The notes under the pieces are model-generated. The model did no database searches, had not been told where the DNA came from, and was given only the letters and a program-made list of their open reading frames with translations. From Candidatus Magasanikiibacteriota bacterium (GTDB taxonomy: Bacteria; Patescibacteriota; Patescibacteriia; Magasanikbacterales; GWA2-37-8), in the NCBI GenBank assembly GCA_041666265.1, contig JBAYHH010000001.1, positions 8,056 to 72,055 of the forward strand: DNA of 64,000 bases. Reading direction: 5' to 3'. Of this stretch, positions 1,613-56,232 are shown piece by piece; position 1 is the first letter of the stretch; every line of letters begins with the position of its first letter. A program made the position numbers and the translations under genes.

Positions 1613-1816
1613 ATTAGTAAATTAAAATTTAATTTATTAAAATCTAAATTACTAACGAGCCAAGTGGAAGACAAAGATTCTTCGCTTCGTTCAGAATGAC
1701 ATAAAAACATATGAGTAAAGTATTAGGTACCCGCCTTCGCCCTTTGGGCTTCGGCAGGGCAAGTCGATCTCGGTTTTCAATTATTAATTAACATTTATCA
1801 TTAATCAAATAATACT

Positions 1817-5896: not shown

Positions 5897-6355
5897 ATGA
5901 AAAAATTATTAATTGCCATGGTGGTGTTAGGCTTGCTGGTTGTAATGGCCCCGGCTTTCGCTGATGATACGGACCAGACAAGTGAAACAACAACCGTTTG
6001 GGAACAACTCAAGGCTGATCGCGAAGCCGCTTTTGCCAATTTAAAGACCGCCCGCGAAGCGGTGCGCGCGCAATTGAAAAACGAGCGAGAAAAAGTCGGC
6101 GCCATTTGGGAGGCCAAAAGAGACGCGCTTAAAGCCCGTAATGATTTAAATAAAGCCGCCCAGACAGAATATCAGAAGGTGGTCAAAGCGGCGCGTGATA
6201 TTCGCAATGCCGCTGTCAAAAAAGCGGATGCGGATTTTAAATTGGCCCAAAAAGCCGCTCAAACTGCGTATAGCGCTGCTAAGGCCGCCAATGAAGCCGC
6301 GTATCGATCTGAAGTCACATCATCCACCGCCATCACTGTCCCGACCGCTGAGTAA
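5897..6355 (+). CDS. secreted alpha-helical protein (signal peptide), unknown function
   Basis: N-terminal signal peptide (MKKLLIAMVVLGLLVVMAPAFA). A/K/E-rich helical repeats. Strong promoter upstream. Confidence 0.55.
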   Translation: MKKLLIAMVVLGLLVVMAPAFADDTDQTSETTTVWEQLKADREAAFANLKTAREAVRAQLKNEREKVGAIWEAKRDALKARNDLNKAAQTEYQKVVKAARDIRNAAVKKADADFKLAQKAAQTAYSAAKAANEAAYRSEVTSSTAITVPTAE

Positions 6356-6364
6356 ACCTAATTG

Positions 6365-6479
6365 TACAAAAATACACCCCTAACTTAAATCTCTTCGCTT
6401 TCCTCGGCCGCGAGGCCTCAGGGATGCGCCTGCGGGCGCATAACCCGCTCAGAGAATTCAGTTAGGGGTGTATTTTGTA
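6365..6479 (+). repeat. conserved structured intergenic element, copy 1 (candidate ncRNA / 3'-UTR structure / terminator)
   Basis: Outer stem 6365..6384 / 6461..6479 (TACAAAAATACACCCCTAAC / GTTAGGGGTGTATTTTGTA). Conserved core 6392..6457 contains hairpins CCTCGGCCGCGAGG and ATGCGCC-TGCG-GGCGCAT. Fills the gap between convergent genes. Confidence 0.7.
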
Positions 6480-6480
6480 T

Positions 6481-6879
6481 TTAGCGTTTATCCAGCGCCT
6501 CATTCACGAGCTTATCCGCCTCTTTGTTTCCGGCGCGCATTATATGGGTAAATTTTACTTTTTTAAATTTTGTCGTCAGGTTATATGCCTGTAAATACAA
6601 TTTTTGTAATCCCGGTTCTTTCACGCGATATTCGCGTTTCATTTGTTTGGTAACAAGCTCGCTGTCGAGCACACATTCCACTTCGGTCGCGCCCAATTCC
6701 AACGCGCGCGTGAGTCCGAGTATCAGTCCCATGTATTCGGCGTAATTATTGGTTTGTTCTCCAAGATATTTTCCAAAAGCGGCCAGATTTTCACCGGCCA
6801 TATTTTTGATTACCACTCCGCTCGCGGCCGGCCCGGGATTACCGCGCGCTCCGCCGTCCGAGAATATTTTAACTTGCAT
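6481..6879 (-). CDS. rnhA: ribonuclease HI
   Basis: IFSDGGARGNPGPAASGVVI N-terminus and the acidic-residue pattern are typical of RNase H type 1. Confidence 0.85.
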   Translation of the reverse strand: MQVKIFSDGGARGNPGPAASGVVIKNMAGENLAAFGKYLGEQTNNYAEYMGLILGLTRALELGATEVECVLDSELVTKQMKREYRVKEPGLQKLYLQAYNLTTKFKKVKFTHIMRAGNKEADKLVNEALDKR

Positions 6880-13243: not shown

Positions 13244-13372
13244 GAAAAGATATCAAAAATTAAAAATCAAAGATCAAAAATGTCGAATTCGGACACAGTC
13301 TTTAATATTTGATTTATTATTTTTGATATGTTACAATACTACCATAATTAAGCCAATATATCAAGGGTAGGT

Positions 13373-13810
13373 ATGAAAGTCATACTATTGCAAAATGTGG
13401 CCGGCTTGGGCAAGGCCGACGATATCAGAGAAGTGGCCGAGGGCTATGCTCGCAATTTTTTGTTTCCGCGTCATTTGGCGGTGCTTTCGAGCTCTCAAGG
13501 ACTCGCCGAAATCGAGGCGCAAAAGAAGAAAAAGTCCAAAGACGAGCTCCGCGACCTGCAACAACAACAATCGCTCGCGGCCAAGCTCGACGGAGTCGAG
13601 GTTAAACTAAAAGAAAAGGCAAGCGCCTCGGGCGTGCTATACGCGGCTATCGGCCCCAAGCAGATCAGCGATGCCCTCACCAAAATGGGATTCGCGGTCG
13701 ATAAAGAAAAAATTCGCATGGCGCCAATCAAAGAAGCCGGTGAATTCGAGGTCAAGATTAGATTAAGACATGGATTAGAAGCCAAGATATCAATAGTTGT
13801 TTCGGTGTAA
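13373..13810 (+). CDS. rplI: 50S ribosomal protein L9
   Basis: MKVILLQNVAGLGKADDIREVAEGYARNFLFP is a canonical L9 N-domain. Length is as expected. Confidence 0.93.
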   Translation: MKVILLQNVAGLGKADDIREVAEGYARNFLFPRHLAVLSSSQGLAEIEAQKKKKSKDELRDLQQQQSLAAKLDGVEVKLKEKASASGVLYAAIGPKQISDALTKMGFAVDKEKIRMAPIKEAGEFEVKIRLRHGLEAKISIVVSV

Positions 13811-13923
13811 TTTTGAATTTATAATTTTGAATTTTGAATAAAATTCGAATTTTTAATTTTTAAAATTCTATATTCAAGTTTTATTCAAAATTAGAAATTT
13901 AAAATTAAATATTTTGTAAATTT

Positions 13924-21509: not shown

Positions 21510-21615
21510 AAATTATAAATATTAAATTACAAATCCCAAATAAATATCAGATCTCAAATTTTAAAAACGAATCGATTTTGATATTTGTAATTTGAAATTT
21601 TGAATTTAATTTTCT

Positions 21616-22889: not shown

Positions 22890-23201
22890 ATGGGCAATTT
22901 CAAAAAAGGATTATTCCTTGGTGGATTACTCGGTGCCGGCATGATGTGGCTTAATGCCACTCCCAAAGGCCGTGAAATGCGCGCTAAATTAGTGGAGCAC
23001 CTCAATCCGCTTTATATCGAGCTCAAAGAAAGCATTAAACAACTTGAAGGCCCTACTCGTGAAATGTATGAGGCGCTCGTTGATCGCGCGGTCGAAGAAT
23101 ATTCCGCCAAAAAGGAAATGGCCGATGAAATGAAGGCGGTGCTTATCAAAAAACTCAAATGTAAATGGAAGGACTTGGAAAAAGAGTTGAAGAAAAAATA
23201 A
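22890..23201 (+). CDS. YtxH-like small protein
   Basis: N-terminal glycine-zipper (GLFLGGLLGAGMMWLNATPKGRE) followed by a charged helix, as in YtxH/DUF948 proteins. Confidence 0.55.
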   Translation: MGNFKKGLFLGGLLGAGMMWLNATPKGREMRAKLVEHLNPLYIELKESIKQLEGPTREMYEALVDRAVEEYSAKKEMADEMKAVLIKKLKCKWKDLEKELKKK

Positions 23202-23216
23202 CCGATCTCTTAAAAT

Positions 23217-23322
23217 AAAACCAGCATTACAGATAATCTTTTCGCTTTCCTCGACCGCGAGGTCTCGGGGATGGTCCTGTGGGACCATAACCCGCTCAAA
23301 GAATATCTGTCATGCTGGTTTT
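23217..23322 (+). repeat. conserved structured intergenic element, copy 2
   Basis: Outer stem AAAACCAGCATTACAGATA / TATCTGTCATGCTGGTTTT. Core has CCTCGACCGCGAGG and ATGGTCC-TGTG-GGACCAT. Followed by a U-run and a partial duplicate of the right arm (ATATCTGTC at 23332-23340). Confidence 0.7.
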
Positions 23323-23448
23323 TCATTTAAAATATCTGTCCGGCTGTTTTTAAATACACAAAAAATTGGCCTTTGATAATGTATTTTCAGCACTCTACGA
23401 GCGAAGCGAGCTTGGCTGAAAATATATTATCTAAGGCCAATTATTAAA

Positions 23449-25263
23449 TTAGATAGTTTTTTTAATGTCGGTTATTTTTAGTTCCAGTTCACGGTTGCCG
23501 TTCCATTCATTGACGCCGACCGTGAAAGCGAGATCGATTTTGTCACCCGGTTTGAGATTTTTCTTCCAATCAGAAGGATGGCGATTGCTATCTCCAAATC
23601 CAAAGGCGATAGTTTTACGCACGGTGTGAGAGTTGTGTTTTACCATCAGGCGAAGGTGTTTACCGTTTTGGCCGATGGGGTCGGCGGAAATCAAAGTGAG
23701 ATCGCGCGCGCCATATACCGGCTCCTCGTTATTCATCCCAAATGGTTCGAATTTTTGTAGTAAATCGTAAAGTTTCCAGTTGACATCCTCGAGGTTCACT
23801 TCGGCATCAATATTAATTTGTGGCACCAGTTCGACGCCTGTCAGCAAAGTTTCAGCACGGGCCATTATGGCAGATTTGAATTTTTCCAAAGTTTGTTCGT
23901 CTTTGATCGATAATCCCGCTGCTTGCGGATGTCCGCCAAATTTAAGAAAATATTCCGGCATGCTCTGCAAAGCCTCGATTAAATTAAATTCGGAGATACT
24001 ACGGCCACTGCCGACAATTTCTTTGTCGGCGTTGAGTCCGAGGGCGAGCGCCGGTTTGTAAAATTCATCCTTAAGTCGTCCCGACACCAATCCCAAAATT
24101 CCGGTTGGCCATGACGGGTCAAACGCAAATAGTACCGGATTATTTTTTTGGTCCGAATTAATGATTTGTTCACGCGCCGCGGTCAAAATTTGATCGGTTA
24201 ATTTTTGGCGGTCAGTGTTATTTTTATTTAGTTGTTCAGCCAATATTTTCGCCTCTTCGACACCTTCGCTCATCAAAAGCGCCAGGGCGGTATTGGCGTG
24301 ATCCATGCGTCCGGCGGCATTGAGACGGGGAACGATTTGAAATCCAACCGCGTGCGTGTCGATTGGTCCGCGTTTTTGTTTGCCATTTTCGTCCAGAATT
24401 CCGGCGTTAATCATGAGTTCGCGCAGTCCCAGATTTTTGGTTTTATTGAGGACGGTGAGCCCGTAGCGGGTGAGAGTGCGACTTTCACCAATGAGAGGCA
24501 CCATATCTCCGACAGTGGCGATCGCGACCAAATCGAGCATCCATTTTTCAAATCCTTCGCACGATTCACCAGTGGCGGTTTTGCCTTCAGTCGCCGGGCA
24601 GTGCTTTTGCAGTAGAGCTTGTGCCAGTTTAAAAGCCACGCCCGCTCCACATAATCCCTGGTCGGGATAAGTTTCACCCGGTAATTTGGGATGGATCACT
24701 GCGTCTGCCGGGGGCATCGCCGAGGGAATTGCATGGTGATCAGTGACGACCACCCGCATTCCGAGATCTTTGGCCAGTTTGATTTCTTCCAAATTACTGA
24801 CACCGCAATCACAGGTAATGATTAAATCGGTTTTGTGTTTTTCCTTCAGATGCTTGACCGTATTTTTATTCACTCCATAACCATCAATTTCGCGATGGGG
24901 AAGAAAAACGCGCGTGCCTTCCATATTTTCGGCAGTTACAAATGGCTTGGCGCCGAGCGCAAGCAAGGTATTTACCAAAATAGTGCTCGCGCAGACGCCA
25001 TCGGCATCATAGTCGCCATGTACAGTGATATTTTTTTGGTTTTGAATAGCTTCAAAAATAATCGCCACGGCTTTTTCCATGTCGCGAAATAAAAACGGAT
25101 CATGAATATCGCTCGTATAATCCGGATTTAAAAATTCGTCAATCAGTTCCGGCGTGCGAATATCGCGATTCCAAAGTAGGCGCGCCACAATCGGCGGCAG
25201 TTCGGGGTGAATAGATATAAAATCCGCCGGCGGGGCGGGTGGGATGATCCATTTTTTCGACAT
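23449..25263 (-). CDS. recJ: single-stranded-DNA-specific exonuclease RecJ
   Basis: DHH motifs (VHGDYDADG, VVTDHH), DHHA1 (GGH), C-terminal OB-like region. ORF extends to 25326; ATG at 25261-25263 (MSKKWIIPP) is preferred. Confidence 0.9.
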   Translation of the reverse strand: MSKKWIIPPAPPADFISIHPELPPIVARLLWNRDIRTPELIDEFLNPDYTSDIHDPFLFRDMEKAVAIIFEAIQNQKNITVHGDYDADGVCASTILVNTLLALGAKPFVTAENMEGTRVFLPHREIDGYGVNKNTVKHLKEKHKTDLIITCDCGVSNLEEIKLAKDLGMRVVVTDHHAIPSAMPPADAVIHPKLPGETYPDQGLCGAGVAFKLAQALLQKHCPATEGKTATGESCEGFEKWMLDLVAIATVGDMVPLIGESRTLTRYGLTVLNKTKNLGLRELMINAGILDENGKQKRGPIDTHAVGFQIVPRLNAAGRMDHANTALALLMSEGVEEAKILAEQLNKNNTDRQKLTDQILTAAREQIINSDQKNNPVLFAFDPSWPTGILGLVSGRLKDEFYKPALALGLNADKEIVGSGRSISEFNLIEALQSMPEYFLKFGGHPQAAGLSIKDEQTLEKFKSAIMARAETLLTGVELVPQINIDAEVNLEDVNWKLYDLLQKFEPFGMNNEEPVYGARDLTLISADPIGQNGKHLRLMVKHNSHTVRKTIAFGFGDSNRHPSDWKKNLKPGDKIDLAFTVGVNEWNGNRELELKITDIKKTI

Positions 25264-25280
25264 ACCAGAACAAATAGAAT

Positions 25281-25673
25281 TTATTTTTTTAAAAGTCCGT
25301 GCAGGCCAATGGCCCGAAAATCCCAATAACTATCGGCGAGAAAGATGGTAAAAGCTAAAAATAAAGCGTTGATCGACCAGTAGTCGGAAGCGGGGATGGG
25401 CGAGCTATATGACGCGAATACCATCACTCCGAGCGCGATCCAGTAAAATAACGATTTACCGGTAAGGGTGCGTCGATCCGACAGCACGACAGTGGCGCGC
25501 ACGCGCAAAAGTCCGGTAATATAAATAATCAAAATCGGTATCGCAATCAACCATTCATAACGATGCGGATCAACCCCGATAAATTTGAAGAAATAAAACA
25601 ACGCCCAAACTAAAAGCAAAAATGCGAAAAATAAAAAAACTATATCGAGCTGATACTTGCGTAATATTTGCAT
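25281..25673 (-). CDS. hypothetical integral membrane protein
   Basis: 130-aa ORF with 4 predicted TM segments. Confidence 0.45.
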   Translation of the reverse strand: MQILRKYQLDIVFLFFAFLLLVWALFYFFKFIGVDPHRYEWLIAIPILIIYITGLLRVRATVVLSDRRTLTGKSLFYWIALGVMVFASYSSPIPASDYWSINALFLAFTIFLADSYWDFRAIGLHGLLKK

Positions 25674-25807: not shown

Positions 25808-25870
25808 GTGTTTAATTTGTCTATAAAGCGACACTGCGAAGCATAAGGAGCGTATAGACAAATTAAACAC
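25808..25870 (-). terminator. long perfect inverted repeat downstream of lepA (18-bp stem, 27-nt loop)
   Basis: GTGTTTAATTTGTCTATA (25808-25825) and TATAGACAAATTAAACAC (25853-25870). Confidence 0.45.
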
Positions 25871-31779: not shown

Positions 31780-32628
31780 ATGAAAATATTAATTATCGGC
31801 AAGGGGTGGCTCGGAGGTAAATGCGCGAGCGCTTGGCCGGACGCGATTATTTCTGAAAAAATTATTGCCGACGAAAAAGATGTTTTGGCGCTGATTGACG
31901 AGCACCATCCCGACGCGATCCTAAATGCCGCCGGCGTGGTGGGCAAACCCAATGTTGATTGGTGTGAGACTCATCAACTCGAGACGATTGCCGGCAATAC
32001 GGTTTTACCGATTACAATCGCGAGCGCTTGTCAAAAAAGAGGCGTGTATTTATTACATATCGGGACCGGATGTATTTTTTATGGCGCTTCGCCTCATGGT
32101 GGACCTTGGACCGAAAACGACGCCGGCAATCCGGTGGCAGTTTATTCCAAATCAAAATACGCCGCTGATTTGGCGCTGTCCACCTTGCCCAATGTTGGCA
32201 TTGCTCGTATTCGCATGCCGATCGACGACCATCCGTTTGTCGGAAATTTGATTGACAAATTGGCTTCTTATCGGCAAGTGGTGGATGTGGAAAACAGCGT
32301 TACGGTAGTGCCGGATATGATTTTGGTTTTTCGGCAATTGCTTGAAAAAAAAGCGTCCGGAATTTTTCACTGTACCAACCCCGGGTCAATTACCCACAAA
32401 AAATTAGTCTCGCTCTATGAAAAATATGTCGATCCGACTCATAAAAATGAGTGGATTACCGAGGTTGAGCTCGTGTCCTGCGGCCTCGCGGCCAAAAAAC
32501 GGTCGAATAATATCATGACTTCGGTGAATTTACCGAAATTTGGCATTATGATGCGGTCAATCGATGAAGCCATCGAGGATGTATTTAAAAAATATTCCAC
32601 TAATTTTTATGAACACTATTTTAGATAA
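31780..32628 (+). CDS. SDR-family sugar nucleotide reductase/epimerase (RmlD-like)
   Basis: N-terminal Rossmann (MKILIIGKGWLGG). Architecture resembles dTDP-4-dehydrorhamnose reductase. Confidence 0.5.
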   Translation: MKILIIGKGWLGGKCASAWPDAIISEKIIADEKDVLALIDEHHPDAILNAAGVVGKPNVDWCETHQLETIAGNTVLPITIASACQKRGVYLLHIGTGCIFYGASPHGGPWTENDAGNPVAVYSKSKYAADLALSTLPNVGIARIRMPIDDHPFVGNLIDKLASYRQVVDVENSVTVVPDMILVFRQLLEKKASGIFHCTNPGSITHKKLVSLYEKYVDPTHKNEWITEVELVSCGLAAKKRSNNIMTSVNLPKFGIMMRSIDEAIEDVFKKYSTNFYEHYFR

Positions 32629-34765: not shown

Positions 34766-35772
34766 CAATCGGACTATTGACTTGGAACGGGGCGAAACAT
34801 TTACCCGCTCTTTTCGAATCTCTAAAAAAACAATCGTTTCGCGATTTTGAATTGATTGTTTTAGACAATTGCTCAACCGATGGATCTCATTCTGTCATCC
34901 TGAGCAAAGCGAAGGATCTGCTCGTTAGTTTTCAATTAATTCAAAACGAACGCAATGTCGGTTTCGCCGCCGGTCAAAATCAAATATTTGCTCTATCAGA
35001 CAGCGAATATTATTTGGCGCTGAATCAAGACATTGTTTTGTCGTCGGATTGTTTGGAGAAGGTGATTAAATGTTTGGACGCCCATACCAATATTGCTTCC
35101 GCTACTCCAAAACTTTTTAAATGGGACAGCGAAAAGAAAATCCAGACGACCATCGTGGATTCTTTCGGGCTCAAAGTATCGCGCAGTCGGAGAGTGGTGG
35201 ATATAAAAAAATTTGACGATGAAAGATTTGCCAATCAAAATTATATTAAAATTTTTGGCGTTTCCGGCGCGTGCGCGTTTTATCGCCGGAGCGCGATTGA
35301 CACAGTCGGAGGATTATTTGACCCAATGTTTTTTGCCTATAAAGAAGATGTTGATTTGGCCTATCGATTAAATAGCGCCGGTTATGACAGTGTCTTGGTT
35401 TTAGGCGCGAGCGCGTATCATGTGCGCACCGGAGCTGATTCAGGAAGTGACAGTAATCATGCCCAAGCGTTCAATAAACAGCGTCAATCTGATTTGGTGA
35501 AATATTATAGCTATCGCAATCATTTGTTGGTTTTGTTAAAAAATGAGTATTGGGAAAATTTTATCATTGACTTTCCTTGGATTTTGTGGTATGAGTTACA
35601 GAAGTTCGCTTACTATTTAATCTTTGATTTTGCCGTGTTTAAAGGGTTATTTGACCTTTGGCGACAAAGGGAGGAAATAAAAGATAAAAGGTCAAGAATC
35701 AAACAGTTTAGAAAGATCGGCTGGCGAGAAATGAGAGAGGTGATATATGACAAATGCAAAATTCCAAATTGA
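34747..35772 (+). CDS. glycosyltransferase family 2
   Basis: GLLTWNGAKHLPALFESL...LDNCSTDGS. GT2 with DxD. Overlaps the previous gene by 19 nt. Confidence 0.85.
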   Translation: MAQPRLTIGLLTWNGAKHLPALFESLKKQSFRDFELIVLDNCSTDGSHSVILSKAKDLLVSFQLIQNERNVGFAAGQNQIFALSDSEYYLALNQDIVLSSDCLEKVIKCLDAHTNIASATPKLFKWDSEKKIQTTIVDSFGLKVSRSRRVVDIKKFDDERFANQNYIKIFGVSGACAFYRRSAIDTVGGLFDPMFFAYKEDVDLAYRLNSAGYDSVLVLGASAYHVRTGADSGSDSNHAQAFNKQRQSDLVKYYSYRNHLLVLLKNEYWENFIIDFPWILWYELQKFAYYLIFDFAVFKGLFDLWRQREEIKDKRSRIKQFRKIGWREMREVIYDKCKIPN

Positions 35773-38414: not shown

Positions 38415-39404
38415 ATGGATATGATCAAAAAAGCCATATTGACCGGCGGGGGGCGCGCCACGCGCTTGCGGCCGATCACCAATACAATCAATAAACACCT
38501 GATTCCGTTGGCTAATAAGCCGATGATTTTTCATGCTATCGAAAAAGTGGCTCGGGCCGGGGTTACTGAGATTTTTATCAATACCAATCCAGGTGAAACC
38601 GAATTACAAAAAATAATCGGTAATGGCGATCGCTTCGGGGTGAAAATATCATTTTTTGAGCAAGTGGGCGGACCGCAGGGGATCGCTCATGTCGTCAAGC
38701 TCGCGCAAAAATTCATCGGCGATGATCCGTTCATGTTTTATTTATCCGATAATATTATTTTGGCCGAGCTAAATAAGCTCGTGGACAAATTTACCACTGG
38801 TAATTTCGACTGTCTGCTCGCGCTGTCGCAAGTAAAAGACCCGGAACGGTTTGGTGTGCCGATTTTCAATGCCAAGGGCGAACTCATCGAGGTGCAAGAA
38901 AAACCGACTAACCCGCCCAATAATTTCGCCGTCACCGGTATATATTTGTATGGCCCGAAATTATTTTTTGAAGCTTTTGATCATATTGCGAAATCTGCGC
39001 GCGGCGAATACGAAATTTCCGATATCCATTCGTATTTTTTGAAGACCGGTCGTAAGGTGGGTCACGAAGAAATCACCGGCTGGTGGAAAGATACCGGCAA
39101 AGTCGAGGATCTGATTTTGGCCAATAAACTTTTGATGGATTTGTGTGGGATAAAATTCGAGATTGGACAAAATGTGAAGCGGATCGGCAGTGTGAAGATT
39201 GTCGAGCCGGTATGCGTGGGCGATGATTGCGTTTTAGAAAATTGCGCGATCGGTCCATATACGGCGATCGGAAAAAACAGCGTAATAAAAAATACGCGCT
39301 TATCGAACGCGATCGTATTTGAAGAATGCATCGTTGAATCCCCGGTGGAAATTGACCAAATAGTCATTAGTCGCGACTCGACGATGAGTGCGAAAATTGT
39401 CTAA
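38415..39404 (+). CDS. sugar-phosphate nucleotidyltransferase with C-terminal left-handed beta-helix
   Basis: AILTGGGRATRLRPITNTINKHLIPLANKPMIF N-terminus (G1P nucleotidyltransferase signature). Hexapeptide repeats C-terminally. Confidence 0.85.
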   Translation: MDMIKKAILTGGGRATRLRPITNTINKHLIPLANKPMIFHAIEKVARAGVTEIFINTNPGETELQKIIGNGDRFGVKISFFEQVGGPQGIAHVVKLAQKFIGDDPFMFYLSDNIILAELNKLVDKFTTGNFDCLLALSQVKDPERFGVPIFNAKGELIEVQEKPTNPPNNFAVTGIYLYGPKLFFEAFDHIAKSARGEYEISDIHSYFLKTGRKVGHEEITGWWKDTGKVEDLILANKLLMDLCGIKFEIGQNVKRIGSVKIVEPVCVGDDCVLENCAIGPYTAIGKNSVIKNTRLSNAIVFEECIVESPVEIDQIVISRDSTMSAKIV

Positions 39405-39414
39405 TATTATTGTT

Positions 39415-39520
39415 GAAGCCGCACAGTCCGATAATCTTTTCGCTTTCCTCGCGCGCGAGCGCTCAGGGATGGTCCTGCGGGACCATAACCCGCTCAAAGA
39501 ATATCAGACTGCGCGGCTTC
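39415..39520 (+). repeat. conserved structured intergenic element, copy 3
   Basis: Outer stem GAAGCCGCACAGTCCGATA / TATCAGACTGCGCGGCTTC. Core has CTCGCGCGCGAG and ATGGTCC-TGCG-GGACCAT. The right arm overlaps the stop codon of the convergent GT4 gene. Confidence 0.7.
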
Positions 39521-40613
39521 TTAGCTTGTATATTTCCTCTCGCACCTTGCGTGCGAATTCGGCTTCGGTAAATTTGCGCGCGGTGGCGTAGCAGTTTTGT
39601 TCCATGGCGAGCGCTTTGGCCGGTGTCAGCTCGTCTACAGCCTGAATCAAATCATTTTCGGTAGGATCGGCGGGCAACATCACCCCGTTTTTTTGATCCT
39701 CAATGATTTCCAGCAGTCCACCCTCGGCCACGCCGATCACCGGCTTGCCCGCGGTCATTGATTCGACCGGGCTCATGCCAAAATCTTCTCGCACCGGAAT
39801 ATATATAGTGGCCAAGCATTTCCCGAGATATTGTAATAGCTCGTCATCGCTAATCCAGCCGACGATTTTGATATTGTCGTGCCCCTCGGCCATTTTTTGA
39901 ATTTTTTGCAGCTCCGGTCCGCCCGATGCTATGATCAGTTTTTTGTCTGGCATTTGCGTGAACGCTTGCGCGATGAGATCGATGCGCTTGACCGAGTAGA
40001 GGCGCGCCCAAGAAAAAAAATAATCACCCTGACTTAGATTCTTGAAAGGCAAAGTATCACATGGTGGATAGACGACAATAGATTCGAGTCCTAAAAATTT
40101 TTTGATGCGCGCTTGGGTGTTTTTGGAGTTGGTAATGATTTTGTCGAAATGTTTGGATAGCGTTCGAAAGCGCCAGCGATTAAAGCCGGCAAACGGCACA
40201 AACAATATTTTCTTCCACCAGCTATATGAGCGTAATTTTTCGGAGTAACAGTCAAACAAATGACGGGGCGGGGTGTGCATGTAGGCGATATTTTTGGCGT
40301 GGCGCGCGCGTAGCAGGGCGGTGAGGCAATCGCCACTATAGATGACGGTGTCGTAATTTTTGAGAAAACCGGTTTTAAGTAAAAATGATAATTGGACTTG
40401 AAGATAACGAAAGCCCGGGACGCGCGACCAAGATTTTTCGCGATATAGTTCAATCACTCGGCCGGAAATTTGACCGCGCGGGTCAAAAGCGTCTTTGGCG
40501 ATAAAAGCCGTAGCAATATCCGCGTTTAAAATTTTGGCCATACTAATGACCAGGCGTTCGCCTCCGCCTTTGTACAAAAAATAGTCGTGCAGGATAATAA
40601 TCTTATTTGGCAT
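39504..40613 (-). CDS. glycosyltransferase family 4 (GT-B fold)
   Basis: EDFGMSPVESMTAGKPVIGVAEGG is the conserved GT4 C-terminal motif. Confidence 0.85.
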   Translation of the reverse strand: MPNKIIILHDYFLYKGGGERLVISMAKILNADIATAFIAKDAFDPRGQISGRVIELYREKSWSRVPGFRYLQVQLSFLLKTGFLKNYDTVIYSGDCLTALLRARHAKNIAYMHTPPRHLFDCYSEKLRSYSWWKKILFVPFAGFNRWRFRTLSKHFDKIITNSKNTQARIKKFLGLESIVVYPPCDTLPFKNLSQGDYFFSWARLYSVKRIDLIAQAFTQMPDKKLIIASGGPELQKIQKMAEGHDNIKIVGWISDDELLQYLGKCLATIYIPVREDFGMSPVESMTAGKPVIGVAEGGLLEIIEDQKNGVMLPADPTENDLIQAVDELTPAKALAMEQNCYATARKFTEAEFARKVREEIYKLRSRAV

Positions 40614-40646
40614 AATTTAATTATTTGTGTGATAATCGTATTATAT

Positions 40647-40686
40647 ACAAAACAACGCTATGTTACAAGCGTTGTTTTGTTGGTCG
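40647..40686 (+). repeat. direct repeat A (attL/attR-like; partial tRNA-Pro 3' end plus downstream hairpin)
   Basis: ACAAAACAACGCTATGTTACAAGCGTTGTTTTGTTGGTCG, identical to 46115..46154. Confidence 0.9.
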
Positions 40687-40741
40687 AACATCCTAAACGA
40701 TGTTAGAACTTTTTTTGAAAAAAATTATTAAGGGCTATTGT

Positions 40742-40830
40742 GTAGGGACTTCGCCCCTACAACCCCTGCCTACCGGTAGGCAGGCCACGAAAATGGGGCG
40801 GGCAAAAAGGCGCCGCCGTTCTCATTTTTA
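40742..40830 (+). promoter_or_regulatory. cluster of three GC-rich hairpins at the island left end (possible attP remnant, structured leader or terminator cluster)
   Basis: GTAGGG-ACTTCGC-CCCTAC (40742-40760). Perfect 20-bp palindrome CCTGCCTACCGGTAGGCAGG (40765-40784). GGCGG-GCAAAAAGGCG-CCGCC followed by a T-run. Confidence 0.4.
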
Positions 40831-40892
40831 CTCTTGTGGATAACTTTTGATATTTTTCTAAATTTATCTTATATTAGCCAAATTATCACTAC

Positions 40893-40921
40893 TTGACATA
40901 GACCAAATAGTCATATAATAT
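40893..40921 (+). promoter_or_regulatory. candidate promoter of the lexA-like / R-M operon
   Basis: TTGACA at 40893-40898 with TATAAT/TAATAT at 40913-40921, 8-16 nt upstream of ATG 40929. Confidence 0.45.
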
Positions 40922-40928
40922 AGAATAT

Positions 40929-41576
40929 ATGGCTAAAACTATCACCAAAAGACAACTTGATGCACTAAATTTGATATATCAGAATACCAAGAGCTCTGGT
41001 TTTCCGCCTAGTATGGCAGAAATGCGCGACGCACTTAGTGTAGCATCAAATCAATCAATAATCAACCTATTGAAGGCTTTGGAGGAAAAAGGTTGTATAA
41101 AACGCGAAGAAGGGCTTGCGCGTGGATTAAAAATTTTACCAAAAGGATTCAGTGTCCTCGGCGTTGACCCGATAGTTCCGGTCGTAGGGCAGAGTTCGTG
41201 CGGTCCGTTTATTGAGGCCACGCAAGAAATTGGCAACTGGACTGTGTTGCCGGGCATAACCAACGAAGTACAAGAATCGCAGGACAAAATTTTTGCCATT
41301 CAGGTGTGTGGCGATAGTATGATTAACGCCGGCATTTATGATGGGGATATGTTATTGGTAAAACAGACACGCGAATTTAAAAATGGTGATATTGTAGTCG
41401 CTCGTAGCGATGACGGCACCACCGTTAAAAGATTCGTTGCAGAAAATAAACGCGCTTATCTAAAGCCGGAAAATCCGGCCTACAAAAATATTCCAATTTT
41501 TGAAGAAACATATTTTGATGGCAAAGTAATTGCCAATTTAAGTACTTTAAAAAGAATGTATGAACCAAAAAATTAA
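40929..41576 (+). CDS. lexA: LexA-type repressor (winged-HTH + S24 peptidase)
   Basis: N-terminus collinear with the LexA DNA-binding domain (LTKRQLDALNLIYQNTKSSGFPPSMAEMRDALSV...LLKALEEKGCIKR). S24 catalytic Ser (VCGDSMINAGIYDGDMLLV) and Lys (TTVKRF). The putative cleavage site is Cys-Gly (VGQSSCGPF), as in UmuD. Confidence 0.85.
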   Translation: MAKTITKRQLDALNLIYQNTKSSGFPPSMAEMRDALSVASNQSIINLLKALEEKGCIKREEGLARGLKILPKGFSVLGVDPIVPVVGQSSCGPFIEATQEIGNWTVLPGITNEVQESQDKIFAIQVCGDSMINAGIYDGDMLLVKQTREFKNGDIVVARSDDGTTVKRFVAENKRAYLKPENPAYKNIPIFEETYFDGKVIANLSTLKRMYEPKN

Positions 41577-43488
41577 CAGCGCGGTGCTAAATAAAATTTT
41601 TCACGATTCCGGCGCGCAATACGGCCTTAAAGAATTTGAAAATGTCAAACCGGTGGAGGTTTTGGATATTTTTGAGAAAGAAAAAGGCAAATTTTATATT
41701 AAATGTCTCAAGCGCGACAAAGATATTTTATTGTTTAGCAACGAAAAGAATTTATCCAAGCCCGAGGAAGTTATTCGTCAATTATGGTTATTTAAATTGA
41801 CCAAATATTATAATTACCCGCTTGACCGGATTGATTTGGAAAAAGATATTCGTTTTGGACATGAGATTCACGCTAAAGCGGCGGATATCATTATTTATCG
41901 TGAAGATAAAGAAACTCCGCTTATAATCATTGAAACCAAAAATCCGGCGGTAGAAAAGGGTTTAGATCAATTAAAAACCTATATCAATTCCGAAGGCGCG
42001 CCTATCGGCGTGTGGAGCAATGGCGTGGAAAAAGTCGTTTTGTACCGCCCTTATCCGCGCGAATTCCAAACTTTACGCGATTTACCACGCGTAGATCAAA
42101 CAATTGACGATGTCTTGGAGGAAAAATTAACCCTTGACGATTTACACAAAGATTATGATTTGGTAAAAATTCTCAAAATTTTAGAGGAACTTGTTTTGGC
42201 CAGCGCGGGTGTAGATTCGTTTAATGAAATTTTTAAACTCATTTACGCCAAGTTATTTGACGAAAAAGAGGCGCGCAAACGAAAAGATAATGAATTGTAT
42301 TTCCGACAGTCCAAAGATCCAAAAATTACTCTTGATGTTATTAATAAACTTTTTCAGAGCGCCTGCCAAGAGTGGCCAGGGATATTTAGTAGTTATGAAA
42401 AAATAGAACTTACGCCCAATCACCTCGCTGTTTGTGTGGATGAATTTTCAAAAATAAGATTATTGGACGCTAATTTGGAAGTAATTGATGCCGCCTTTGA
42501 ATATTTATTACCTGATGTCGCCAAGGGCAAACGCGGGCAATATTTCACTCCGCGCCATGTGATAGATATGGCGGTAAAAATGCTCAATCCCAAGGACGGT
42601 GAATATATTATTGATCCGGCATGTGGGAGCGGTGGATTTCTTATTCACGCCATGCGTTATGTTTGGAACAACAACTTAAAACACGCTGACAAACAAGCCA
42701 AAACAGATTATGCCCGCAAATATATCTATGGAATTGATTTTGATGATAAACCGGTAAAAATCGCCCGCGCCATGATGCTTATTGCTGGTGACGGTAAATC
42801 ACACATCTTGAAATTGAATTCGCTTAACACCAAAGAGTGGCAGGGTGATGAAAGCGAAAAAGAACGCGCGCGCGCCGAATTGCGCGATCGATTACACAAA
42901 TTTGATGATTACGACAAAGACAAAAATAATAAAGATAACTTTAAATATTTTGACTTTGATATTTTATTATCAAACCCACCCTTTGCTGGCGAGATTCACG
43001 AAACCCCACTACTCAAAGAATACGAACTGGCAAAAAACGACAAAGGCAAGTTGCGTAATAAAATGGAGCGACACATTTTGTTTATTGAACGCTCGCTTGA
43101 TTTGGTAAAACCAGGTGGGCGTATGGCGATTGTTTTACCGCAGGGCGTGTTTAATAATAGCAACATGGAATATGTGCGCGATTACTTATTGGACAAAGCA
43201 CGTATTTTGGCAGTCGTTGGATTAGAAGTAAACACATTCAAACCGCACACCGGCACCAAGACCAGTGTAATATTTTTACAAAAATGGGGCGCAAAAGAAA
43301 ACAAACCAAAGGATTATCCTATTTTTATGGCCGTTTCCAAAAAATCAGGCAAGGATAATTCCGGCGATTATGTTTATCGCAAGGACAAAGAAGGCAGTTT
43401 GATGTTTGATGAGCAGGGGAAAAAAATATTGGAGCATGATTTGGATGAAATTGCGGAGGAGTATTTGAAATTTACAGAAAAAATATGA
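41560..43488 (+). CDS. BcgI-A-like bifunctional restriction endonuclease / N6-adenine DNA methyltransferase
   Basis: N-terminal HSDR_N-type PD-(D/E)xK motif (AADIIIY...PLIIIETK...LDQLKTY). Gamma-class N6-MTase motifs (DPACGSGGFL, NPPF). 642 aa, comparable to BcgI A subunit. Start overlaps the lexA-like gene by 17 nt. Confidence 0.8.
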   Translation: MNQKINSAVLNKIFHDSGAQYGLKEFENVKPVEVLDIFEKEKGKFYIKCLKRDKDILLFSNEKNLSKPEEVIRQLWLFKLTKYYNYPLDRIDLEKDIRFGHEIHAKAADIIIYREDKETPLIIIETKNPAVEKGLDQLKTYINSEGAPIGVWSNGVEKVVLYRPYPREFQTLRDLPRVDQTIDDVLEEKLTLDDLHKDYDLVKILKILEELVLASAGVDSFNEIFKLIYAKLFDEKEARKRKDNELYFRQSKDPKITLDVINKLFQSACQEWPGIFSSYEKIELTPNHLAVCVDEFSKIRLLDANLEVIDAAFEYLLPDVAKGKRGQYFTPRHVIDMAVKMLNPKDGEYIIDPACGSGGFLIHAMRYVWNNNLKHADKQAKTDYARKYIYGIDFDDKPVKIARAMMLIAGDGKSHILKLNSLNTKEWQGDESEKERARAELRDRLHKFDDYDKDKNNKDNFKYFDFDILLSNPPFAGEIHETPLLKEYELAKNDKGKLRNKMERHILFIERSLDLVKPGGRMAIVLPQGVFNNSNMEYVRDYLLDKARILAVVGLEVNTFKPHTGTKTSVIFLQKWGAKENKPKDYPIFMAVSKKSGKDNSGDYVYRKDKEGSLMFDEQGKKILEHDLDEIAEEYLKFTEKI

Positions 43489-44342
43489 CATTAGCAGATT
43501 TATTAACCGAAAGGATTAATGAGACCGGATTTCCTTTCCAGGAGGAATGCTACCAATTTATTAAAGATACAAAAAATTTTGTTACAAAAGAATATCCATA
43601 TTCGTTTATCGGAGTTGATGGTTCGGTAGATATTTTGACTTTAAAGATTCCGCCCCTTGATGATTTTGGCGATTCTTTTTGGCCAATCATGTCTATTGAA
43701 TGTAAAAAAAGTAAACCCGGTATTAAAAATTGGTGCTTTATTAAGACGGATAGAGGTGGTTATGGAACAAAACCATTATTTGTGGTTTCAATAGTAAGCG
43801 CGGAAAGTGAAGCAAAATTATCATTTTCATCTGAATTATACTCATTTGATAGATTGAAATTTTTTAACGACAAAATGGTAACAATTGATGAAGTTGTAAA
43901 TTTTGGGTTTGAAAGCAACATACTTGCGGAATCTCTTAATAGAAATCAGGAAGAAAAAATTTATAAGTCGCTACTTCAAAGCGTAAGCGGTATTACTTAT
44001 GTTGAGAAAAAAAAGTTTCCCAATATACCGGAGCTGCGGCTGAATGAAGACAAAATTAATGGATTAAGTCGTAGGACACTTCCGCCGTCATACCCGACAA
44101 TTATTTTTATACCAATAGTGTTGACCACATCGGACTTATATGTGGCTAATTTTAATCCTAATAATGTTAAAGACGGTGAAATTGATAATGGAAGTGTCAC
44201 CTGGGTTCAGAAGAATTGGGTTTTTTATGATTTTGGTTTGCCTGATTATCTGCAACAAGATGAACTGGTTTACAGAGGCGTATTTATTGTCAACAATAAA
44301 CATTTTCCGGTATTTTATAATACATTGATGCCATCATTTTAA
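43485..44342 (+). CDS. hypothetical protein, possible PD-(D/E)xK nuclease-fold accessory protein
   Basis: 285 aa, ATGA-overlapped with the MTase gene. Candidate motif GVDGSVDILTL...IMSIECKKSK. No other homology recognisable by eye. Confidence 0.45.
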   Translation: MTLADLLTERINETGFPFQEECYQFIKDTKNFVTKEYPYSFIGVDGSVDILTLKIPPLDDFGDSFWPIMSIECKKSKPGIKNWCFIKTDRGGYGTKPLFVVSIVSAESEAKLSFSSELYSFDRLKFFNDKMVTIDEVVNFGFESNILAESLNRNQEEKIYKSLLQSVSGITYVEKKKFPNIPELRLNEDKINGLSRRTLPPSYPTIIFIPIVLTTSDLYVANFNPNNVKDGEIDNGSVTWVQKNWVFYDFGLPDYLQQDELVYRGVFIVNNKHFPVFYNTLMPSF

Positions 44343-44345
44343 TTT

Positions 44346-45722
44346 ATGGTTTTTTCAATAATACAAAAGTCCCAACTTGAGGGCGCACAACGATTAGATG
44401 CTGAATATTATCAGCCAGAGTATTTAAAATTGGAGAGTAATTTGGGAAAAAATAATTTATCCCTAAAATTTTTTAGTGATATTTTAGAAAAGGAGAATTC
44501 TTTGACCGGAGGTGCCACTCCATTGGGCGCAGACTACCCAAGTAGTGGAGTTAGATTTTTGCGTGTACAAAATATTATGCAAGGATTTTTAGATTTTGAT
44601 GATGTTGTATTTATCTCTCAGCAAACAAATGATAATCAGTTAAAACGATCTCAATTAGTGGACAGTGATGTGTTATTAACCATCACTGGTGTTTCTTATG
44701 GCAAATCGGCGGTGTATAAAAAATCTTGTGGCCCATGTAATATTAATCAACATTCTGTTAGAATGCGTTTTATTGAAAAAATTTTACCTGAATATGTTGC
44801 TACTTTTTTAAATTCAAAATATGGTAGATTTCAATCGGATAGAAAAATTACAGGTGACACCCGACCAGCGCTAGCATACGAAGAAATTAAAAATTATTTA
44901 ATTCCAATATTTGACATTGAGCAACAAAAAAATATTCAAAAAATTTATACTAAAGCGAATAATTTATTGGATGAATCAGAGAATATATATAAAAACGCTT
45001 TAGATATTTTTTTAAGCGAAACAAATGTAAATTGGTTTAGTGAGAATAAAATTTATTATTCCGTTGTTAATTTATTCGAAGTACAAACCGTCAATCGTTT
45101 TGACGCAGAATATTTTAATTCCCCGTGCAATAAAATTCTAACGCAGATTATTAAAGGCAAAACCGCCAAATTAGGCGACCTGGCGGACATGACAAAAGGT
45201 GTTGAGCCTGGGGCCGACGCGTATCAAGATGAAGGAAAATTATTTATCCGCGTTAGTAGTATTTCCAAAGATGGCATAATAGATAAAGACCAAAAATATT
45301 TGAGTGATGATTTGTATAATGAATATAAAAAAGATTACCAACCACAGGTTGGTGATGTACTTTTGACAAAAGATGCTTCGATAGGCGTTGCTTGTGTGGT
45401 ACGAGAGTCGGTTGAAGGAATTGTGGCTGGTGGAGTTTTACGATTAAAATTAAAGGAAAAGATGAATCCGGAATATTTGGCTTTAGTGTTAAATTCTATC
45501 GTTGGTCAAATGCAGGCCAAACGAGACGCCGGTGGCTCTATTATCGCTCACTGGAAACCAGAACAAATAAAAAATTTAGTAGTTCCAATTTTGCCTGCCG
45601 CAACTCAAGAAAAAATCGCGGGCTTGATCGTTAAATCGCACGAAGCCCGTAAAAAAGCGAAGAGGTTACTTGAAGAGGCAAAATTAAAGGTCGAGGAAAT
45701 GATAGAAAAAGGAGGTAGATAA
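44346..45722 (+). CDS. restriction-modification specificity subunit (HsdS/BcgI-B-like) with two target-recognition domains
   Basis: Duplicated TRD framing motifs (RLDAEYYQPEY and RFDAEYFNSP). Conserved central and C-terminal helices. Confidence 0.85.
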   Translation: MVFSIIQKSQLEGAQRLDAEYYQPEYLKLESNLGKNNLSLKFFSDILEKENSLTGGATPLGADYPSSGVRFLRVQNIMQGFLDFDDVVFISQQTNDNQLKRSQLVDSDVLLTITGVSYGKSAVYKKSCGPCNINQHSVRMRFIEKILPEYVATFLNSKYGRFQSDRKITGDTRPALAYEEIKNYLIPIFDIEQQKNIQKIYTKANNLLDESENIYKNALDIFLSETNVNWFSENKIYYSVVNLFEVQTVNRFDAEYFNSPCNKILTQIIKGKTAKLGDLADMTKGVEPGADAYQDEGKLFIRVSSISKDGIIDKDQKYLSDDLYNEYKKDYQPQVGDVLLTKDASIGVACVVRESVEGIVAGGVLRLKLKEKMNPEYLALVLNSIVGQMQAKRDAGGSIIAHWKPEQIKNLVVPILPAATQEKIAGLIVKSHEARKKAKRLLEEAKLKVEEMIEKGGR

Positions 45723-46114
45723 TAATAATAATTTTATGTCGTGGATAAAAGTAAAGGATCCAAATTTTTTCCCAAGGTTACCGAGCTTACCGCGATTACC
45801 TCGGTTGCCAAGTTTGCCGAAAATACCAAAAATCCCATCAATCAGACCGATAAAGCCAATAGCACCATTGGGTTATAAGTATGTTTGGCGTGAACCCAAA
45901 TAATTTGAAGTAGGTAGAGCGAGCGGGATGGAGGAGTGCCAAGATCCGAGGAGGTTGGTAATTACGAAAGCCCAACCCAACCGCGACCGAAATAATTGTT
46001 TCCAAAACCTCGCTAAAAAGTGGGGTTTTGTTTTCTAAAATTGGGAGCACCATTTGCCCGCCCGATTAATAATTTTTTTAAAAAAGGTTCGAGCTTCGTT
46101 CAGTAATTACGACA

Positions 46115-46154
46115 ACAAAACAACGCTATGTTACAAGCGTTGTTTTGTTGGTCG
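46115..46154 (+). repeat. direct repeat B (overlaps the 3' terminus of tRNA-Pro)
   Basis: Identical 40-mer. 46149..46154 are the tRNA 3' end (CGACCA on the minus strand). Confidence 0.9.
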
Positions 46155-46225
46155 GGGTGCCGGGACTTGAACCCGGAATCTCGTGAACCCGAATCACGCG
46201 CCTTAGCCAATTGGGCCACACCCCG
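46149..46225 (-). tRNA. tRNA-Pro (anticodon CGG), CCA encoded
   Basis: Manual cloverleaf. Acceptor CGGGGTG/CACCCCG. U8. D-arm GCCC/GGC with loop containing GG. Anticodon stem CGTGA/TCACG with loop TTCGGGT. T-arm CCGGG-TTCAAGT-CCCGG. Discriminator A then CCA. Confidence 0.85.
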
Positions 46226-46261
46226 TAGTGAGATGGATTGTATCACCCTATCGCGAAAAAA

Positions 46262-46885
46262 TCAAGGGCGCAGGGTGTGTATGGCGCGATCAAGCGCCAG
46301 GTGCATCTGTATTTCAATAGCGCGATTGGTTTTTTGAGCCAGTGGCAGATAATAGCGATTGGCTTCGCCAAACCAATGCGTAATTTTATTGTATTTGGGA
46401 AAAAGTAAAAATAAATCGCACCAACAGCGCATATTATCGAGCATGTCAGCGCATTTTACTATTCGCGTCTTTTTGTCAGCGCGCATAATAAAATTATATC
46501 TGCGCCCCTTGCTGATTTTTTTGGATAGCTCGCATTCATTGTCATGGCGCGGGCGAGTCAGATTTTTTACCAACCGAGCGATTTCTCGGTCAAATTCTTT
46601 TTCAATTGTTGGTAATTTTATATCGGTATCTTCGACTACATCATGCAAAAGAGCGGCGGCGATCATGGCGCAATTCTTACTTTTGAATTCGTAAATCAAT
46701 GAATTGGCCACGCGTAGAGGATGGATAAAATATTGGTCGCCTTCGTAGCGTCGCTGGTTTATATGAGCTGTTTGCGCCATCAAAAACGCGCGCGTCAAGA
46801 TGTCGCGCCCGCGGGCCGATTGTTTTTTTACATATCGATGAAACAGTTTCTCGTGATATTTTATGTTTCTGAAGCGTGATTTCAT
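46262..46885 (-). CDS. HD-domain (p)ppGpp hydrolase-like protein (RelA/SpoT HD family)
   Basis: QYFIHPLRVANSL...AALLHDVVEDTD conserved HD motif of SpoT-type hydrolases. About 207 aa; start uncertain. Confidence 0.7.
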   Translation of the reverse strand: MKSRFRNIKYHEKLFHRYVKKQSARGRDILTRAFLMAQTAHINQRRYEGDQYFIHPLRVANSLIYEFKSKNCAMIAAALLHDVVEDTDIKLPTIEKEFDREIARLVKNLTRPRHDNECELSKKISKGRRYNFIMRADKKTRIVKCADMLDNMRCWCDLFLLFPKYNKITHWFGEANRYYLPLAQKTNRAIEIQMHLALDRAIHTLRP

Positions 46886-47017
46886 ATTTAGATAACAAAG
46901 CTCATTTTAGCACCATTATGTGATTTGAGCAAATGCTGGTATGGGGTGTTCTGGATATATTTTTGTGATTATGATATTATACGCACAGTAGTTAATTTTT
47001 AGCTGTTATTATATTTT

Positions 47018-56132: not shown

Positions 56133-56232
56133 AAGCCCGAAAGGCCGGAAAGGCTTGAAATGCTCAAAAGGTCACGTCAACAACGTCAAGCTTTTCTAGC
56201 CTTTCCGGCATTTTAAGCCTTTCAAGCCTTCT

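Follow-up and report, generated by a model that had tools for sequence, protein, structure and literature searches.

What keeps a long, strongly folded element at gene ends in a compact bacterial genome, and is it selected as RNA or copied as DNA? The question is raised by three copies of an element of about 110 bp in a stretch of 64,000 nucleotides from a Candidatus Magasanikiibacteriota bacterium (GenBank assembly GCA_041666265.1, contig JBAYHH010000001.1, positions 8,056 to 72,055), hereafter the window. An earlier description of this DNA, made without database searches (the sequence-only reading), took the copies for structured elements at gene 3′ ends and proposed a novel noncoding RNA or a complex terminator. 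We found that they belong to a family of interspersed palindromic repeats of about 100–120 bp in Magasanikbacteria, Giovannonibacteria and related Patescibacteria (the Candidate Phyla Radiation, CPR). The reading that we favour, with about as much belief as doubt, is a structured palindromic repeat resembling repetitive extragenic palindromes (REP) and miniature inverted-repeat transposable elements (MITEs), which occupies terminator positions and whose apex is a candidate recognition module for a trans-acting factor.

Each window copy is predicted to form a single long hairpin that ends in a three-way junction. Folded as RNA, copies 1, 2 and 3 reach minimum free energies of −61.2, −51.4 and −56.7 kcal/mol (z = −8.7, −8.1 and −7.2; no shuffled sequence was equally stable), and folds with DNA parameters have a similar shape, with z values of −8.6, −10.1 and −5.8 against shuffles. 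Common to the three copies is a core of 52 nt that comprises the helix P1, the hairpin P2 with a GNRA loop and the hairpin P3, in which GGG, 7 bp, a tetraloop, 7 bp, an AA bulge and CCC follow one another. The change in P3 from ATGCGCC/GGCGCAT to ATGGTCC/GGACCAT that had been reported is real, and it is accompanied by double changes in P2 (GGCC/GGCC, GACC/GGTC and GCGC/GCGC) and in P1 (TCTCT/AGAGA in copy 1, TCTTT/AAAGA in copies 2 and 3). The small hairpin CCTCG-NCCG-CGAGG of the sequence-only reading was dropped in favour of a 4-bp stem with a GCGA loop, which is the form that covaries. Around every family copy there is an outer inverted repeat (arms of 26 nt in the median, P1 included) whose sequence is unrelated between copies, as in the earlier observation of an outer stem that differs in each copy yet remains self-complementary. 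About two thirds of the copies carry a purine·A or A·C mismatch 8–9 bp below the core, with the purine always on the 5′ arm.

The family was assembled in two ways. A scan of species-representative genomes with the pattern GCTTTCCTC-N(8-20)-CTCRGGG-N(12-30)-AACCCGC returned 106 stretches, 14 of which (in Bordetella, Variovorax, Thermaceae and others) have no hairpins and were discounted as chance matches. All others come from metagenome-assembled genomes (MAGs): those of Magasanikbacteria, Giovannonibacteria and Parcubacteria, together with several that carry the label Saccharibacteria or ‘Gammaproteobacteria’, the latter name being wrong as far as gene content and likeness to the window can tell. 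Single MAGs hold 10–14 pattern-perfect copies. The viral collection gave one match (L001), within a long open reading frame (ORF) and without a hairpin, which was also discarded as chance. Two stretches that resemble each other, L058 1988-2047 and L060 198-257 (GCTTTCCTCGCCCC...GGGGGGTAAGTAAGTCCAACCCGC; one from a Thermaceae MAG and one unclassified), lack the family hairpins and may represent some other conserved sequence.

A covariance model, trained on 19 gap-free copies, then recovered 106 copies in 746 kb of CPR loci from about 25 genomes, including several that the pattern had overlooked. In the alignment of these copies, which was fitted to the model and thus favours structure, 94.8% of the cells are paired compared to 76.3% after shuffling. 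Changes on both sides occur in 16 of the 20 pairs, with 357 compensatory cells compared to 102 in shuffled alignments. None of 500 shuffles matched the observed pairing or compensation, shifting the partners by 1–3 columns abolished the signal, and an independent MAFFT/RNAalifold run recovered the same pairs. The covarying family structure is real. The sequence-only reading had suggested both such a search and an Rfam scan; the first supplied abundant compensatory changes, and the second indicates that the element is absent from Rfam 15, where the sole match of the whole window at the gathering threshold was a tRNA and where positions 6300-6550 gave only noise at E ≤ 10 (mir-1789, 13.7 bits; WT1-AS_2, 12.2 bits). 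Literature searches, which included sequence strings, found no description of the element. The arms, treated as guides, had no further match in 1 Mb with up to three mismatches.

The kind of pairing in these stems differs from that of a hairpin selected as RNA, which normally tolerates G·U on the transcribed strand. The core holds 1883 Watson-Crick pairs, 18 G·T and 32 A·C; the outer stems hold 2421, 32 and 106, and in the distal stems alone 26 G·T stand against 50 A·C. Where the neighbouring genes are in tandem, G·U falls 19 times on the gene-sense strand and 23 times on the antisense strand, i.e. without excess. Such near-pure Watson-Crick stems are the outcome expected of palindrome maintenance at the DNA level. 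The apex has a strand, nevertheless: the junction sequences, the purine·A or A·C mismatch and the loops are strand-specific and flip together with the core, which argues for selection on just one of the two strands of the apex. GCGA loops are found in 16 of 45 distinct P2 hairpins, and 28 of the 49 four-nucleotide P3 loops are UNCG or CUYG on the core strand, mostly with a C-G closing pair, compared to none of the 49 on the other strand.

Comparing the flanks of all copies revealed about 17 orthologous pairs, about five of which have an inverted core, among them two of the five most closely related pairs (80–89% flank identity). Window copy 2 itself has the opposite orientation to the recJ 3′-end copy of locus L021. 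The decisive pair is L092 and L100, which have identical flanks and an identical right arm but P1 and the core in reverse complement. In L100 the left arm complements the right one perfectly, in L092 only partially, and the footprint is exactly F1-A-L-B-F2 -> F1-rc(B)-rc(L)-B-F2. Template-switch mutation in quasi-palindromes is an established mechanism, and this footprint is the product expected when a nascent strand switches arms, copies the apex and switches back. If this is what took place here, a single event would account for both the flipped apex and the perfected stem.

With flanking genes called by a crude longest-ORF method, 27 of 103 cores lie in sense and 28 in antisense, 24 are in convergent gaps and 14 in divergent gaps (a first count gave 24/26/24/13), and relative to local GC skew the orientation has no preference (59:47, p = 0.29). 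The copies are intergenic and enriched between convergent genes. Since core orientation is random and orthologous cores are flipped, the element is not a sense 3′ untranslated region (UTR) element of the upstream gene, as had been proposed. The rule that it follows on the + strand right after a + strand gene does not survive either; it arose because all three window copies, and not two of them as counted before, occupy convergent sites.

Copies 1, 2 and 3 were all recovered on the + strand at the places originally described (Table 1), and a degenerate 31-nt core pattern matches the window exactly three times (0.00 expected from 100 shuffles). Only 6 of the 58 window gaps are convergent, so that by rough arithmetic the chance of finding all three main copies in such gaps is about 0.001. 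Copy 1 spans the entire gap between a 152-aa ORF (5897-6355, +) and the RNase HI gene (6481-6879, −). Copy 2 lies between a YtxH-like gene (22890-23201, +) and recJ (23449-25326, −), and copy 3 between genes for an NTP-transferase (38415-39404, +) and GT1 (39504-40613, −), the latter of which terminates within the 3′ arm of copy 3. The genes of the window are ordinary chromosomal ones, such as dnaK, dnaJ, recJ, lepA, murJ, dnaG and sigma-70. A weak fourth match retains P2 (GGCC-GCGA-GGCC), has eroded junction motifs and no outer stem, and is probably a decayed family copy, its membership being uncertain; the second copy of L023 is likewise decayed.

Table 1 Positions of the element, of its parts in copy 1 and of the motif C hairpins. 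Positions are those of the window unless a locus is named.
Feature	Position	Strand	Sequence or pairing	Support
Copy 1, whole hairpin	6364-6480	+		covariance model, 95.8 bits
Copy 1, core (52 nt)	6397-6448	+		sequence, fold, model alignment, pair counts
Copy 1, outer stem	6364-6391		paired with 6453-6480	
P1			TCTCT..GC paired with GC..AGAGA, enclosing a TC/TC mismatch	
Copy 1, P1 inner pairs	6397-6398		paired with 6447-6448	
Copy 1, J1/2	6399-6405		TTTCCTC	
Copy 1, P2	6406-6417		G-GCC-GCGA-GGC-C; general form G-NNN-GCGA-NNN-C	
Copy 1, J2/3	6418-6420		TCA; general form TCR	
Copy 1, P3	6421-6446		GGG-ATGCGCC-TGCG-GGCGCAT-AA-CCC	
Copy 2, whole hairpin	23217-23322	+		94.5 bits
Copy 2, core	23244-23295	+		
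Copy 3, whole hairpin	39415-39520	+		94.0 bits
Copy 3, core	39442-39493	+		
Weak fourth copy	32444-32510	-		covariance model, 22.5 bits (rough E about 1e-4 to 1e-3)
Motif C, window	1674-1700	+		
Motif C, window	34894-34920	-		
Motif C, L146	17899-17946			
Motif C, L149	5932-5958			
Motif C, L149	6279-6305			

Comparison with related loci indicates how copies arise. In the closest relatives found for the copy 3 site, the NTP-transferase and GT1 genes converge 11 nt (L141, 79% amino acid identity) or 0 nt (L145, 72%) apart and the hairpin is absent; the window has about 112 extra nucleotides there, and its GT1 extends 8 codons (YKLRSRAV) to a TGA. Because the relatives’ genes lie only 0–11 nt apart, the whole hairpin of copy 3 is inserted DNA. 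At the copy 2 site most recJ relatives carry a plain bidirectional terminator with the stop codon in its loop, e.g. AAAAAATCCGC-TTAA-GCGGATTTTTT, of the form AAAAA-stem-TAA-stem-TTTTT with stems of 6–10 bp and loops of 4–6 nt; these loci contain only one family copy in 210 kb. The copy 1 site offers no comparison, as relatives have no 152-aa gene; three independent assemblies of one species agree fully in the sequence and orientation of copy 1. A public short-read contig, L148 (Logan SRR6484324), stops inside copy 1 at its 3′ end, so such hairpins break short-read assemblies.

Copies in the same genome can have identical 52-nt cores in different hairpins, with identity fading symmetrically 5–16 nt into the arms. 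In L070, L081 and L078 the arms can still be aligned beyond that zone and differ there by A-T to G-C double changes, which suggests that the whole hairpin was duplicated as a unit and that the arms diverged later. Core identity is 0.85 within genomes compared to 0.78 between them, and the cores of diverged orthologues are 0.74–0.81 alike while same-genome paralogues reach 0.82–0.90. This likeness within genomes indicates gene conversion or turnover. Two schemes of insertion were rejected. Insertion into the loop of an existing terminator would suit copies 1 and 2, whose distal stems resemble simple terminators, but as a general rule it fails on the lack of a hairpin in the relatives of copy 3 and on the homology of paralogue arms. 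A CGCT target-site duplication at the core ends was abandoned because Giovannonibacteria-type copies read TTTTTGC...GCAAAAA.

The part of a complex terminator, which the sequence-only reading had considered, is plausible for the outer hairpin. A- and T-tracts flank 14 and 13 of the 24 convergent copies; in the divergent gaps T or A tracts are found at 3 and 1 of 14. In copies 1 and 2 the base of the stem contains GC, and a T-rich tail follows it on either strand; the A-run and T-run at copy 2 look like those of a bidirectional terminator, and no hairpin but that of the family is present in the convergent gap of copy 1 or in that of copy 3. An own sigma-70 promoter, from an RRTAAT box in the 5′ arm, was tried and rejected: hexamer position 2 is not conserved and only one of the three copies has a promoter-like match.

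Taken together, it is because the copies are non-coding, multi-copy, intergenic, located at gene ends, found in either orientation, lineage-restricted, patchy, inserted as units and subject to concerted evolution that we read them as relatives in kind of REP, BIME, REPIN and MITE sequences. In the model that we propose, the outer hairpin would serve as a terminator or 3′-end hairpin, often for both directions, and this service may be the reason why insertions survive in compact genomes. The apex, read as a single strand (single-stranded DNA, ssDNA, or RNA), would be recognised in trans by a factor responsible for copying or maintaining the element, and would not be in the service of the adjacent gene. 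Template switching inside the palindrome would invert the apex and recopy one arm so that it complements the other perfectly, producing ‘covariation’ without selection at the RNA level; together with the need for a hairpin in both transcripts it would keep the stems paired. One candidate partner, but no more than that, would be a structure-specific nuclease, e.g. one of the small GIY-YIG proteins of the hairpin-bounded cassettes described below.

Several observations weigh against this model. The 59 window ORFs include neither a transposase or RAYT nor any other candidate enzyme, a search of 1.05 Mb of loci found no split ends around a larger parent element, copy 3 shows no target-site duplication, and the arms are not conserved in the manner of classic terminal inverted repeats. 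Copies are kept at orthologous sites with intact junction nucleotides even where the flanks are only about 70% identical, a persistence that looks more like host-level purifying selection than like a purely selfish element. UNCG, CUYG and GNRA loops are typical of RNA, and as a signature of RNA rather than DNA stability they are the best evidence that the apex acts as RNA. The conserved single-stranded segments stressed by the sequence-only reading are found again in the junction nucleotides, but their invariance is partly a matter of ascertainment, because our search pattern fixed those motifs; among the matches made only by the covariance model there is a variant class whose P2 is extended by pairing between J1/2 and J2/3. 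As for the outer hairpin, copy 3 has no U-tract, and the consensus terminator scan handles only loops of 3–8 nt, so that large-loop hairpins cannot be called; that the element acts as a terminator is probable, as we infer from its setting.

Among known repeats the REP, BIME and REPIN sequences are the closest in behaviour. Like the element studied here, they are multi-copy, extragenic, mostly at gene 3′ ends, found in both orientations and palindromic with an asymmetry that defines a strand, and they share genome-specific sequence populations, persistence at orthologous sites and a double role as mRNA-end hairpin or terminator. In our family, extragenic copies in both orientations reach 10–14 in single MAGs. 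REP and REPIN sequences, however, have conserved arms and a variable apex, whereas here a three-way-junction apex is conserved and the arms differ from copy to copy, even within one genome and around identical cores. The GTAG motif of REP is missing, the hosts are CPR bacteria rather than proteobacteria, and RAYT, the Y1 HUH transposase that mobilises REP, is not found in the window. Correia elements of Neisseria, ERIC, RUP and BOX are similar as non-coding intergenic sequences of about 100–150 bp with long hairpins in either orientation, which can extend ORFs or supply terminators; Correia RNA hairpins are substrates of RNase III. Neither the conserved terminal inverted repeats of MITEs nor their target-site duplications were found: same-genome identity stops 5–16 nt outside the core and copy 3 lacks a duplication. 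A related autonomous insertion sequence (IS) was not found in the 1.05 Mb of loci.

Other systems share single traits. Bidirectional terminators are likewise hairpins in convergent gaps, with an A-tract before and a T-tract after, and copies 1 and 2 fit this description; they have a stem of 6–10 bp and a loop of 3–8 nt, however, compared to a stem of 20–30 bp and a structured apex of 52 nt here, and many family copies have no U-tract and some lie between divergent genes. Template-switch mutation predicts the product seen in L092 and L100 and accounts for the Watson-Crick-only ‘compensation’, but it is a mutational process and not a family, and leaves the sequence conservation of the apex unexplained. 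Hammerhead and twister-sister ribozymes are also small, with three helices, conserved unpaired junction nucleotides and many copies per genome. The junctions UUUCCUC / UCR / none do not match the hammerhead CUGAUGA / GAAA / UH, no hammerhead, twister, pistol, hatchet or HDV-like core was matched by cmscan at E ≤ 10, and the variant in which J1/2 and J2/3 pair argues against a fixed catalytic core. The small ribozyme that the sequence-only reading considered has nothing in its favour apart from the compact conserved junction. The IS200/IS605-derived PATE elements are strand-specific, with subterminal hairpins and an orientation set by the replication fork; our copies have two internal hairpins and strand-specific features but show no orientation to GC skew, and the window has no TnpA. 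Integron attC sites, with R''/R' boxes (RYYYAAC ... GTTRRRY) at the stem base, a variable centre and a fixed orientation to the cassette ORF, have the reverse layout of the present element, whose centre is conserved, whose base is variable and whose orientation is random. We know of no repeat family with a conserved three-way-junction apex, strand-specific loops, a fixed helix defect and free arms. What is described here is thus new as a family within a kind of interspersed palindromic repeat that is already familiar, set apart by its conserved apex and free arms.

What the apex does could be stated in other ways. More tentatively than the repeat itself, we consider that it may be a new CPR-specific single-stranded module, either a small RNA or ribozyme dispersed on hairpins or the handle of a mobile element that is copied by a structure-specific nuclease (e.g. 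a small GIY-YIG protein) and flipped by template switching.

The main rival explanation, a bona fide structured noncoding RNA, trans-acting or processed from read-through and possibly catalytic, appears unlikely to us. The core strand would be the functional one, the long stem a platform for processing or termination (e.g. as an RNase III substrate) and wrong-way copies silent by-products of flipping. The hyper-stable tetraloops with C-G closing pairs (GCGA; UUCG, UACG, UGCG; CUCG, CUUG), which are found on the core strand only, argue for such an RNA, as do the conserved junction nucleotides, the purine·A mismatch, the strong covariation and the retention at orthologous loci over deep divergence; and between convergent genes, where both strands are transcribed, the core strand would be made (as for the three window copies and 24 of 103 overall). 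Yet in tandem contexts there is no sense bias, 14 copies lie between divergent genes and near-identical loci show flips. G·U on the core strand is rarer than A·C mismatches, which is unusual for a selected RNA, no promoter is conserved (position 2 of the −10-like RRTAAT box has no conserved A) and no ribozyme core of Rfam was matched.

Alternatively, and we think quite improbably, the element is a DNA-level signal of the host, an ssDNA hairpin or extruded cruciform that serves in priming, in recombination or as a nucleoid-protein site and is kept by chromosomal selection instead of mobility. Pairing that is Watson-Crick only and symmetric on both strands, a very stable ssDNA fold, orientation indifferent to transcription and persistence at orthologous sites all suit this explanation, and GCGA-type loops are stable in DNA too, as in mini-hairpins of the d(GCGAAGC) type. 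A replication signal in ssDNA should, however, track the fork, and core orientation does not follow GC skew. The patchiness among close relatives, with a single copy in the 210 kb of recJ-relative loci, and the insertion of copy 3 fit an essential site poorly, and UNCG and CUYG loops are not known to have any special stability in DNA.

That the copies are ordinary intrinsic terminators of shared ancestry, with the apex a neutral passenger conserved through recent spread and gene conversion, is very improbable: positions at gene 3′ ends with A- and T-tracts, concerted core evolution within genomes and decayed copies in the window and L023 agree with it, but junction sequence, mismatch position and loop classes are constant over about 25 species and several CPR classes with all stems rewritten, relatives’ ordinary terminators have short stems and 4–6-nt loops, and copies in divergent gaps mostly lack the tracts.

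The proposal of a GIY-YIG partner for the palindromic repeat stems from a second hairpin. Besides the decayed fourth copy, the most consistent weak match of the covariance model is motif C, a 26-nt hairpin (GGATYCTTCGCTTTGCTCAGRATGAC; Table 1) that has only the inner helix TTCGCTTT...GCTCA in common with P1. In L149 and L150 two inverted copies of motif C surround a gene for a GIY-YIG protein of about 100 aa just upstream of dnaK, and at the same place the window has a solo motif C (1674-1700). Another occurrence is inside a GT2 ORF, and the one in the hrcA-grpE gap of L146 has an extra hairpin in its loop, between TTCGCTT and GCTCA. The window also encodes a GIY-YIG protein of about 100 aa (about 55064-55366, between HlyD-like and ABC genes), bounded by perfect 25-nt inverted repeats, GTCATCCCCGCGCAGGCGGGGATCC, at 55026-55050 (+) and 55376-55400 (−). 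Each of these is itself a hairpin, the inverted repeat extends to 32 nt, and 55026-55400 has the look of a small mobile cassette bounded by hairpins. Slx1 and UvrC are examples of structure-specific nucleases with GIY-YIG domains, and for this reason the protein is a candidate enzyme for our element. The outer GTCATYC/GRATSC stem of motif C is absent from the family, no family copy flanks a gene and no linkage of family copies to a GIY-YIG gene was found; the shared inner helix may be a lead to relatedness, not a sign of membership.

Other hairpins share the intergenic regions of the window. Long ones are common in this genome, and imperfect palindromes with arms of 31–52 nt, AT-rich or GC-containing, occupy further gaps at 13247-13332, 13808-13913, 21510-21613 and 56131-56230. 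A second long hairpin (23361-23445; 31-nt arms, 90% complementary) adjoins copy 2 directly after recJ. It has a different apex (AGCCAAGCTCGCTTCGCTCG, − strand), which is found again in L109 (3693-3710) at the end of the same gene, and seems to represent a further apex family carried by a hairpin of this type. After lepA there is a perfect 18-bp hairpin with a 27-nt loop (25808-25870), flanked by TCGCTC direct repeats, which looks MITE-like in its inverted repeats and duplication; at this site L038 and L007 carry the element studied here, in opposite orientations. Between two MacB-type permease paralogues the window has a gene for a 115-aa ‘23S rRNA intervening sequence protein’ (PF05635; 57531-57878). 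This is the exact position of the studied element in the relative L103, and the gap beyond it holds only a P2-like hairpin (CTGGCTGCGAACCAG). Finally, the region 40001-48000, with a G+C content of 0.39–0.41 compared to about 0.46, encodes LexA, a type I restriction-modification methylase and specificity subunit, an HD-domain protein and tRNA-Pro(CGG) (46149-46225), and may be an acquired island.

With about 1 Mb of tightly packed DNA, CPR genomes are regarded as having few repeats and little mobile DNA. One would therefore not expect several of their classes to carry a strongly folded element in 10 or more copies per genome. It is also a cautionary case for RNA discovery, since the ‘compensatory covariation’ would here come largely from a DNA process that rewrites one arm and flips the apex, and covariation alone would have misassigned the element as a 3′-UTR RNA. 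If the apex is indeed a recognition handle or a new RNA, how such tiny genomes tolerate, or use, self-copying terminator hairpins would become a tractable question.

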